NCBI RefSeq assembly: GCF_050920415.1
Contig: NZ_CP169309.1
DNA: 64,000 nucleotides
From: Escherichia coli
GTDB lineage: Bacteria > Pseudomonadota > Gammaproteobacteria > Enterobacterales > Enterobacteriaceae
Reading direction: 5' to 3' (one strand)
Shown here: piece by piece, positions 61,180 to 62,718 of the stretch
Layout of the letters: each line of letters begins with the position of its first letter
Numbering within the stretch: position 1 is the first letter of the stretch
Translations under genes and position numbers: made by a program
Notes under the pieces: model-generated
Database searches by the model: none
What the model was told of the DNA's origin: nothing
The model's input: the letters and a program-made list of their open reading frames with translations, nothing else

Positions 61180-62718
61180 ATGGCGAAAGAAAAAAAACGT
61201 GGCTTTTTTTCCTGGCTGGGCTTTGGTCAAAAAGAGCAGACCCCGGAAAAAGAGACAGAAGTCCAGAACGAACAACCGGTTGTAGAAGAAATCGTTCCGG
61301 CGCAAGAGCCTGCGAAGGCTTCTGAACAAGCCGTTGAAGAGCAGCCGCAGGCGCATACTGAAGCCGAGGCGGAAACTTTTGCTGCCGACGTTGTGGAAGT
61401 TACTGAACAGGTTGCTGAAAGTGAAAAAGCGCAGCCTGAAGCTGTTGCTGAACCGGAAGTTATTACTGAGCCGGAAACGATAGTTGAAGAAACGCCAGCG
61501 TCAGTCATTGAACCTGAAGTTACGCCAGAGCCTGTGGCTATCGAGCGTGAAGAGCTGCCGTTGCCGGAAGACGTCAAAGCCGAAGAGGTTTCGCCAGAAG
61601 AGTGGCAGGCCGAAGCGGAAACCGTAGAGATTGTCGAAGCGGCGGAAGAAGAAGCGGCTAAAGACGAAATCACCGACGAAGAGCTGGAAGCACAGGCGCT
61701 GGCTGCCGAAGCGGCAGAAGAGGCGGTGATGGTGGTTCCTCCGGCAGAAGAAGAGCAGCCGGTGGAAGAAATCGCTCAGGAGCAGGAAAAACCGACCAAA
61801 GAAGGTTTCTTCGCGCGCCTGAAACGCAGCCTGTTAAAAACCAAAGAAAACCTCGGTTCCGGATTTATCAGCCTGTTCCGCGGTAAAAAAATCGACGATG
61901 ATCTGTTTGAAGAATTGGAAGAGCAATTGCTCATCGCCGATGTGGGCGTGGAAACCACGCGTAAAATTATCACCAATCTGACAGAAGGTGCGACCCGCAA
62001 GCAGCTTCGTGATGCCGAGGCGCTCTATGGCCTGCTGAAAGAAGAGATGGGTGAGATACTGGCGAAAGTCGATGAACCGCTGAACGTTGAAGGTAAAACG
62101 CCATTCGTGATCCTGATGGTGGGCGTCAACGGTGTGGGTAAAACCACGACGATTGGTAAGCTGGCGCGTCAGTTTGAGCAGCAGGGTAAATCAGTGATGC
62201 TGGCGGCGGGCGATACTTTCCGTGCAGCAGCGGTTGAACAGCTTCAGGTCTGGGGGCAGCGTAATAATATTCCGGTGATTGCCCAGCATACCGGTGCGGA
62301 TTCTGCTTCTGTTATCTTCGACGCCATTCAGGCCGCTAAAGCGCGTAACATCGACGTTCTGATTGCCGATACCGCCGGGCGCCTGCAGAACAAATCGCAC
62401 TTGATGGAAGAGTTGAAGAAAATCGTCCGCGTGATGAAGAAACTCGACGTTGAAGCTCCGCATGAAGTTATGCTGACTATCGACGCCAGTACCGGGCAGA
62501 ATGCAGTAAGCCAGGCCAAACTGTTCCACGAAGCCGTTGGCTTAACCGGCATCACGCTAACGAAACTGGACGGCACGGCGAAAGGCGGGGTAATTTTCTC
62601 GGTGGCTGACCAGTTTGGTATCCCTATCCGCTACATTGGTGTCGGCGAACGTATTGAGGATTTGCGTCCGTTTAAAGCGGACGACTTTATAGAGGCACTT
62701 TTTGCCCGAGAGGATTAA
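61180..62718 (+). CDS. ftsY: Signal recognition particle receptor FtsY, 512 aa here
   Basis: ORF track; acidic A domain then NG GTPase domain (GVNGVGKTT). Confidence 0.95.
   Translation: MAKEKKRGFFSWLGFGQKEQTPEKETEVQNEQPVVEEIVPAQEPAKASEQAVEEQPQAHTEAEAETFAADVVEVTEQVAESEKAQPEAVAEPEVITEPETIVEETPASVIEPEVTPEPVAIEREELPLPEDVKAEEVSPEEWQAEAETVEIVEAAEEEAAKDEITDEELEAQALAAEAAEEAVMVVPPAEEEQPVEEIAQEQEKPTKEGFFARLKRSLLKTKENLGSGFISLFRGKKIDDDLFEELEEQLLIADVGVETTRKIITNLTEGATRKQLRDAEALYGLLKEEMGEILAKVDEPLNVEGKTPFVILMVGVNGVGKTTTIGKLARQFEQQGKSVMLAAGDTFRAAAVEQLQVWGQRNNIPVIAQHTGADSASVIFDAIQAAKARNIDVLIADTAGRLQNKSHLMEELKKIVRVMKKLDVEAPHEVMLTIDASTGQNAVSQAKLFHEAVGLTGITLTKLDGTAKGGVIFSVADQFGIPIRYIGVGERIEDLRPFKADDFIEALFARED

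Follow-up and report, generated by a model that had tools for sequence, protein, structure and literature searches.

The ftsY gene in the 64,000-nucleotide stretch of Escherichia coli DNA analysed here (the window) raises the question of why its SRP receptor is longer than that of the reference strain, whether the extra length is real, in which direction it arose, and whether it alters the protein. An ATG-initiated open reading frame at 61180-62718 on the plus strand encodes 512 aa plus stop, and the RefSeq ftsY of K-12 MG1655 has 1494 nt and encodes 497 aa (WP_001040654.1), which bears out both lengths named in the original prediction.

Identity of the gene and reality of the long form

The encoded protein is FtsY. 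In the profile search it scored 385.9 bits against NCBIfam TIGR00064, above the equivalog cutoff of 260.7, with the full profile covered by residues 237-508, and it has the N and G domain architecture of the family, namely SRP54_N (PF02881) at residues 225-290 and the SRP54 GTPase domain (PF00448) at residues 308-508, with the P-loop GVNGVGKTT readable in the translation. The gene context is enterobacterial and the same as in K-12, with the divergently transcribed rsmD (60434-61030, minus strand) on one side and ftsE (62721-63389, plus strand) next downstream in the order ftsY-ftsE-ftsX, as given by the ORF list and annotation. Identity to the ftsY of E. coli MFDS1022581 is 100 %; PGAP lists that CDS as WP_001040621.1, and the long allele is a natural variant that is already known and annotated in RefSeq under this accession.

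Low-complexity, repeat-rich DNA is generally error-prone, and the 45 additional nucleotides might on that account be taken for a sequencing or assembly artefact; however, the reading frame is intact, and a 116-nt probe spanning both large indels picked out 49 carriers of the long form among 5,426 complete E. coli genomes (0.9 %), SMS-3-5 included, with matches at 98-100 % identity in all 49. Because the long segment is found in 49 independent complete genomes, from various laboratories, hosts and countries, the artefact explanation was rejected and retains practically no probability.

Position of the additional residues

Pairwise protein and DNA alignment placed every one of the 15 residues by which the window allele exceeds K-12 in the A domain, in indels of +4, +10 and +1 aa. 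Alignment with K-12 FtsY was the check that the original prediction had proposed, and the lengths do differ, with all three indels inside the interval 61300-61800 to which the difference had been assigned. The first indel is a 12-nt segment at 61442-61453 (plus strand, VAEP), missing from K-12 and the other short E. coli alleles examined and present in E. whittamii and E. albertii as well as in the remaining Escherichia lineages sampled. The second, of 30 nt at 61492-61521 (plus strand, TPASVIEPEV), is likewise missing from K-12 and the other short E. coli alleles examined, and the third is a single codon at 61692-61694 (plus strand; EAQ in the window, ET in K-12), which is lost only in the 497-aa K-12-type allele and kept by O157:H7 and the remaining alleles. 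The description of the region as a low-complexity domain rich in Glu, Pro, Val and Ala also agrees with its measured composition (E 28.4 %, A 15.4 %, V 11.1 % and P 9.1 %).

The window and K-12 proteins each have 304 aa from the GFFARLK motif onwards, a stretch that takes in the second membrane-targeting helix through the NG domain and runs to the C-terminus. Over aligned positions they share 97 % amino-acid identity; the N-terminal lipid-binding segment and the A/N-junction helix of K-12 are identical to those of the window, the NG domain has two conservative substitutions (S to T, A to T), and the window A domain, besides being 15 residues longer, carries several substitutions nearby. K-12 residue numbers, such as those of the MTS at 195-207, move by +15 in the window allele.

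The stretch between the two large indels (61454-61491, plus strand) stands out in the alignment-bin differences as a diverged haplotype patch. Over the bin that contains both indels, the window and K-12 disagree at 9 of 50 aligned bases. The other long-allele lineage examined, E. coli SMS-3-5 (WP_001040624.1), also encodes 512 aa with the indel architecture of the window, and it shows 0 differences in 86 nt in the same bin, though 47 of 1539 nt differ gene-wide, mostly in NG. Because long and short forms differ at 9/50 positions, yet two long lineages agree at all 86 nt, the two forms are old, diverged haplotypes, and not the products of a locus slipping to and fro. E. whittamii FtsY again has the length and indel architecture of the window, with 120 nt different, including 22 of the 86 in the patch.

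Length classes of ftsY in E. coli

Length classes were sampled from 40 rows taken at even steps down the full-gene search ranking. The commonest class was 1497 nt / 498 aa (22/40), followed by the K-12 type of 1494 nt / 497 aa (13/40), 1488 nt / 495 aa (3/40), and single rows of 1377 nt / 458 aa and of the window type, 1539 nt / 512 aa. A class of 1521 nt / 506 aa was estimated at about 25 genomes from the 90-95 % identity band, where 11 of the 11 matches listed had 1521 nt, a junction probe for this allele having been affected by BLAST breaking the duplication into two pieces; a further class, of 1515 nt / 504 aa, comprised six genomes. All classes (1377, 1488, 1494, 1497, 1515, 1521 and 1539 nt) are in frame, and they amount to about seven among roughly 100 matches listed out of 5,425 genomes. 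The commonest class in E. coli is therefore 498 aa and not the 497 aa of K-12, the form used in nearly all biochemistry.

Each length class seen, from 458 to 512 aa, is labelled ftsY by PGAP with the same start and stop logic, so that the expected confusion of gene callers does not occur, although the expected confusion of alignment does in a mild form: megablast gives two pieces, with about 5 % unaligned, and aligners of this type lose the diverged ftsY patch. A literature search on in-frame indels of E. coli ftsY yielded nothing relevant, and its one ftsY VNTR match was intergenic, lying downstream of the M. tuberculosis gene.

Domain anatomy and conservation

The A domain (residues 1-208; 61180-61803, plus strand) is acidic, of low complexity and, from its composition and an AF2 model, predicted to be disordered, with 63 acidic versus 13 basic residues, 28 % Glu and a pI of 4.05. 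It begins with a conserved basic N-terminal lipid-binding segment (MAKEKKRGFFSWLGFG; 61180-61227, plus strand), whose role is known from earlier work (PMC5094494, PMC2928010), and is followed by the second membrane-targeting amphipathic helix at the A/N junction (GFFARLKRSLLKTK; 61804-61845, plus strand; role from PMC2928010) and by the NG domain (61852-62703, plus strand), delimited by Pfam and by alignment with K-12. A basic N-terminal segment, an acidic disordered middle and an A/N-junction amphipathic helix, as read from the sequence and the model, give the window protein the usual enterobacterial layout.

Conservation across 78 species follows this division closely. Majority-residue conservation of the MAKEKKRGFFSWLGFG segment is 0.89-0.94, and the segment is identical in all Escherichia alleles, while GFFARLKRSLLKTK reaches 0.96-0.97, is gap-free and is identical in K-12. 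Residues 1-20 and 201-230 together with the NG domain are gap-free (conservation 0.89-0.97), and the indel zone, residues 91-110, is the most gap-rich part of the A domain, with a gap fraction of 0.46-0.55 and conservation of 0.26-0.34. Among 85 FtsY proteins, 78 of them from other species, the length of the A domain ranges from 123 to 259 aa across Enterobacterales, and the remainder of the protein measures 304 aa in 84 of the 85. Residues 61-81 (61360-61425) form a conserved island, EAEAETFAADVVEVTEQVAE, within the variable A domain; its conservation is 0.60-0.73, it is nearly gap-free in the 78 species, and AF2 models it as a helix at low confidence.

The AF2 model, built on the conservation alignment, is mediocre overall (mean pLDDT 54.6), with pLDDT below 50 for most of residues 14-215 and about 30, with pure coil, at 82-165. 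Within the A domain it predicts helices only at residues 4-12, 61-81 and 166-177, the last of which, allowing for the +15 shift, matches the transient helix Asp152-Ala161 detected by NMR in K-12. The K-12 A domain is disordered by NMR, with residues 38-140 highly dynamic and making no lipid contact; its acidic middle binds SecYEG non-specifically via charge, the FtsY-SecYEG Kd being 0.18 µM for K-12, and the domain has been proposed to be a flexible tether from which NG can search for SRP (PMC5094494). FtsY-NG+1, from which the A domain is gone except for Phe196, complements FtsY depletion, and its in vitro targeting is only 26 % lower (PMC2928010).

Repeats and the probable mechanism of deletion

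The length difference had been attributed to repeat-number polymorphism, and this attribution holds in part: the polymorphism is natural, in frame and confined to the low-complexity A domain, but tandem copy number is not what varies in the window. Tandem Repeats Finder (61100-61900, score threshold 30) reported no tandem array at 61442-61453 or 61492-61521, and its sole match, a repeat of 15 nt in 2.2 copies, lies at 61636-61668 in another part of the A domain. What accompanies the larger indel is a degenerate direct repeat in two copies 30 nt apart (TGAAGnnACGCCAG; 61485-61535, plus strand; repeat families D11 and D6), which is the likely substrate for slippage. Its copies, TGAAGAAACGCCAG at 61485 and TGAAGTTACGCCAG at 61515, are 76 % identical over 21 nt, and their spacing equals the indel length. 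Moreover, the 30-nt segment starts with ACGCCAG and the same 7 bases come right after its end, so that the segment is bounded by a 7-bp direct repeat of the kind found at deletions between short direct repeats. The 12-nt indel is associated with an imperfect CTGAA(G/C) repeat at 12-nt spacing (family D3), a weak microhomology that agrees at 5 of 6 bases, or at only 1 base by a strict sliding test. Because the 30-nt spacing matches a degenerate two-copy repeat, 'repeat-mediated deletion' is a fair description in a loose sense, even though there is no array, and the 30-nt loss probably occurred through replication slippage or illegitimate recombination between short direct repeats, to judge from these junctions.

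Slippage-type changes of length are seen in several other alleles at other places in the domain. The 506-aa allele (strain 1190) contains a perfect 24-nt tandem duplication and, unlike the window allele, does show copy-number variation of the VNTR type; the 495-aa allele has lost 9 nt in an AAE-AAE repeat, and the 458-aa allele has a 120-nt deletion. As in disordered linkers generally, the indels of the window are multiples of three, lie between conserved islands and are flanked by short direct repeats, and as in such linkers the lack of a fixed structure in the region allows them to be tolerated. The locus differs from a hypermutable contingency locus in having few length classes and old haplotypes.

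Origin of the long allele

The direction of change was examined with a species scan, in which one genome per species was taken and 80 loci were returned. The architecture with 512 aa is shared by E. whittamii and 'E. coli' SCPM-O-B-8794, and Escherichia sp. E1V33, with 509 aa, differs in architecture only by a separate 9-nt deletion. Since the alleles of these three lineages are 111-120 sites off the window, versus 47-73 for E. coli alleles, they can be regarded as outgroup-like. E. albertii, SCU-172 and Escherichia sp. MOD1-EC7003 have the 12-nt segment and lack 24 nt at 61485-61508; this gap and the 30-nt one of E. coli (61492-61521) overlap, but neither lies inside the other. A long ancestor is the simplest explanation because there are two different deletions and several full-length lineages, while an origin by insertion is disfavoured because homologous sequence would have to be inserted independently and repeatedly. 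It is therefore most likely that the long form is ancestral in Escherichia and that the forms common in E. coli (495-498 aa) arose from it by deletion, a polarity read by parsimony over a handful of Escherichia lineages; Salmonella and Citrobacter align poorly in the indel segment and cannot polarise it.

Our results strongly favour the interpretation that the window carries a rare, normal ftsY allele that keeps the ancestral long, disordered A domain, and that K-12 and the common alleles have been shortened. According to this scenario, the common E. coli haplotype, K-12 included, would have lost the 12 nt and the 30 nt in the A-domain segment, and the K-12 lineage would later have lost one further codon. 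The direction implied by the original prediction, in which the window had been lengthened, is probably reversed, given that the architecture is common to other Escherichia species and K-12 is the shortened one. If the polarity holds, the 497-aa FtsY of K-12 is a derived, slightly shortened variant.

Two other histories deserve consideration. Expansion of a tandem repeat in the window lineage, making the long allele a derived gain over a K-12-like ancestor, as first supposed, would be in keeping with a low-complexity A domain rich in short degenerate direct repeats, with the resemblance of TPASVIEPEV to EVTPEPVAIE, which comes after it with a period of 30 nt (families D11 and D6), and with the perfect duplication in strain 1190, which demonstrates that such events do occur in another E. 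coli allele. It is nonetheless very unlikely, since there is no array at either large indel and the supposed copies are so dissimilar, the long architecture also exists in E. whittamii and another Escherichia lineage (with a third differing by its own 9-nt deletion), E. albertii carries a different, overlapping deletion, and the 9/50 differences from the short haplotype between the indels would not be explained by a recent duplication. The long patch could otherwise have been imported by recombination from another Escherichia lineage, as opposed to having been retained vertically. The ftsY gene and its flanks are indeed strongly mosaic relative to K-12, with 0-9 % divergence per 200-nt bin; a second divergent patch of the window allele, at 61880-62080, is matched at no more than 93 % by any sampled allele; six RefSeq 'E. 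coli' genomes with an E. albertii-like rsmD-ftsY make interspecies transfer at the locus plausible; and A-domain length is uncoupled from the N-domain patch, given that IAI39 has the patch and a 495-aa FtsY. However, the long patch is 19-22 of 86 bases off every long-form species sampled, and the flanks are E. coli-like, the first 250 nt having 5-9 differences to other E. coli alleles and 19-27 to E. whittamii, E1V33, SCPM-O-B-8794 and E. albertii. No donor was found among the sampled alleles and species, and import appears unlikely on balance. Whether imported or retained vertically, the long architecture would be the older state in the genus.

Mosaicism around ftsY

The yhhM-rsmD-ftsYEX stretch (59680-64000) is mosaic relative to K-12, with divergence of 6.5 % at 59880-60079 and 0 % at 62680-62879. 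The N-domain patch at 61880-62080 is 7-11 % diverged from all other sampled alleles and species, with one amino-acid change only, and occurs at 95 % identity or more in just 29 E. coli genomes, IAI39 and CE10 included. When the divergent patches were compared with 80 species representatives in search of a donor, no candidate exceeded 93 % identity over 61880-62080.

E. coli SCU-172 (NZ_CP054353.1) is one of the six RefSeq complete genomes with a 504-aa ftsY and the only one of them examined. Divergence of its rsmD-ftsY region is 0-1 % relative to the type strain of E. albertii; relative to K-12 it is mostly 8-16 %, with 3 % in one 300-nt bin at the start of ftsY. The six genomes could represent either a patch of interspecies recombination or mis-assigned genomes.

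Functional consequences and tolerance

The 14-15 additional residues comprise 5 acidic and 1 basic, for a net charge change of -4, and the pI is 4.05 in every allele. They fall between the N-terminal lipid-binding segment and the A/N-junction helix, where the domain forms its flexible central tether, and, with both membrane-targeting segments and the NG GTPase intact, the receptor should work as in K-12. In the mechanism proposed here, lipid anchoring would take place at either end of the A domain, the acidic middle would contact SecYEG electrostatically and non-specifically, and NG would pair with Ffh, so that the greatest expected effect is a slightly longer tether. The functional effect of the longer A domain is probably negligible, and we infer that the length difference is neutral.

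PSJ-07 (NZ_AP027619.1), a human faecal isolate, has a 458-aa FtsY in which the in-frame deletion (40 aa) corresponds to window positions 61595-61714 and takes out the conserved islands EEWQAEAETVE and DEELEAQALAAEAAE, including the NMR transient-helix segment. This natural experiment shows that the deleted part of the A domain is dispensable for viability, and the natural alleles from 458 to 512 aa constitute a ready insertion/deletion series showing parts of the A domain to be dispensable in vivo.

An adaptive role for length can also be envisaged, in which a longer, more negative tether alters SecYEG binding or the reach of NG and is kept by selection. The electrostatic binding of SecYEG by the A domain and its proposed tether function (PMC5094494), the four additional negative charges of the long allele relative to K-12, and the coexistence of two diverged haplotypes in E. 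coli would fit such a role, but the long form has a frequency of just 0.9 %, no other part of the A domain is as poorly conserved or as prone to indels in the 78 species as this segment, and near-total removal of the domain is tolerated (PMC2928010), as is the 40-aa deletion found in nature; the acidic fraction, like the pI, is unchanged among alleles. Selection on length is thus highly improbable. More speculative still, and to be given hardly any credence, is an ancient long/short polymorphism under selection, with the long form kept in early-branching lineages such as phylogroup F, and with the length or charge of the tether tuning SecYEG docking in certain ecological or genetic backgrounds. 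The finding has small biological weight, being a natural length allele of a well-studied essential gene that is already correct in RefSeq.

Other features of the window

A promoter and terminator scan of 60900-62800 gave counts not above those of shuffled sequences, and nothing regulatory was tied to the indel region. An antisense ORF at 61227-61673 (minus strand; 148 aa, Ser/Ala/Thr-rich) lies wholly within the A-domain coding region and is absent from the RefSeq annotation; it is most likely a by-product of GAA/GCN-rich sense codons, with no sign of a real gene. Nearby, yhhL at 60175-60567 (minus strand) has 130 aa in the ORF list versus 270 nt (89 aa) in RefSeq, the longer ORF continuing upstream in the same frame and so overlapping rsmD at its 3' end.

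Over its full length the window matches MFDS1022581 at 99.99 % identity and lacks the IS2 copy of that genome (NZ_CP169399.1, 275429-276657; window about 18842-18853). The permease gene should therefore be intact in the window, since the IS2 that splits it in MFDS1022581 is missing. At about 31294-32274, between uspB and pitA, the window aligns unbroken over the gene for the IS110-family IS621 transposase of MFDS1022581, and because the alignment is unbroken there the window should carry this gene as well. According to the annotation of the near-identical MFDS1022581, the remaining window contains the gad/hde acid-fitness island, mdtEF, the ars operon, nik, zntA and others.
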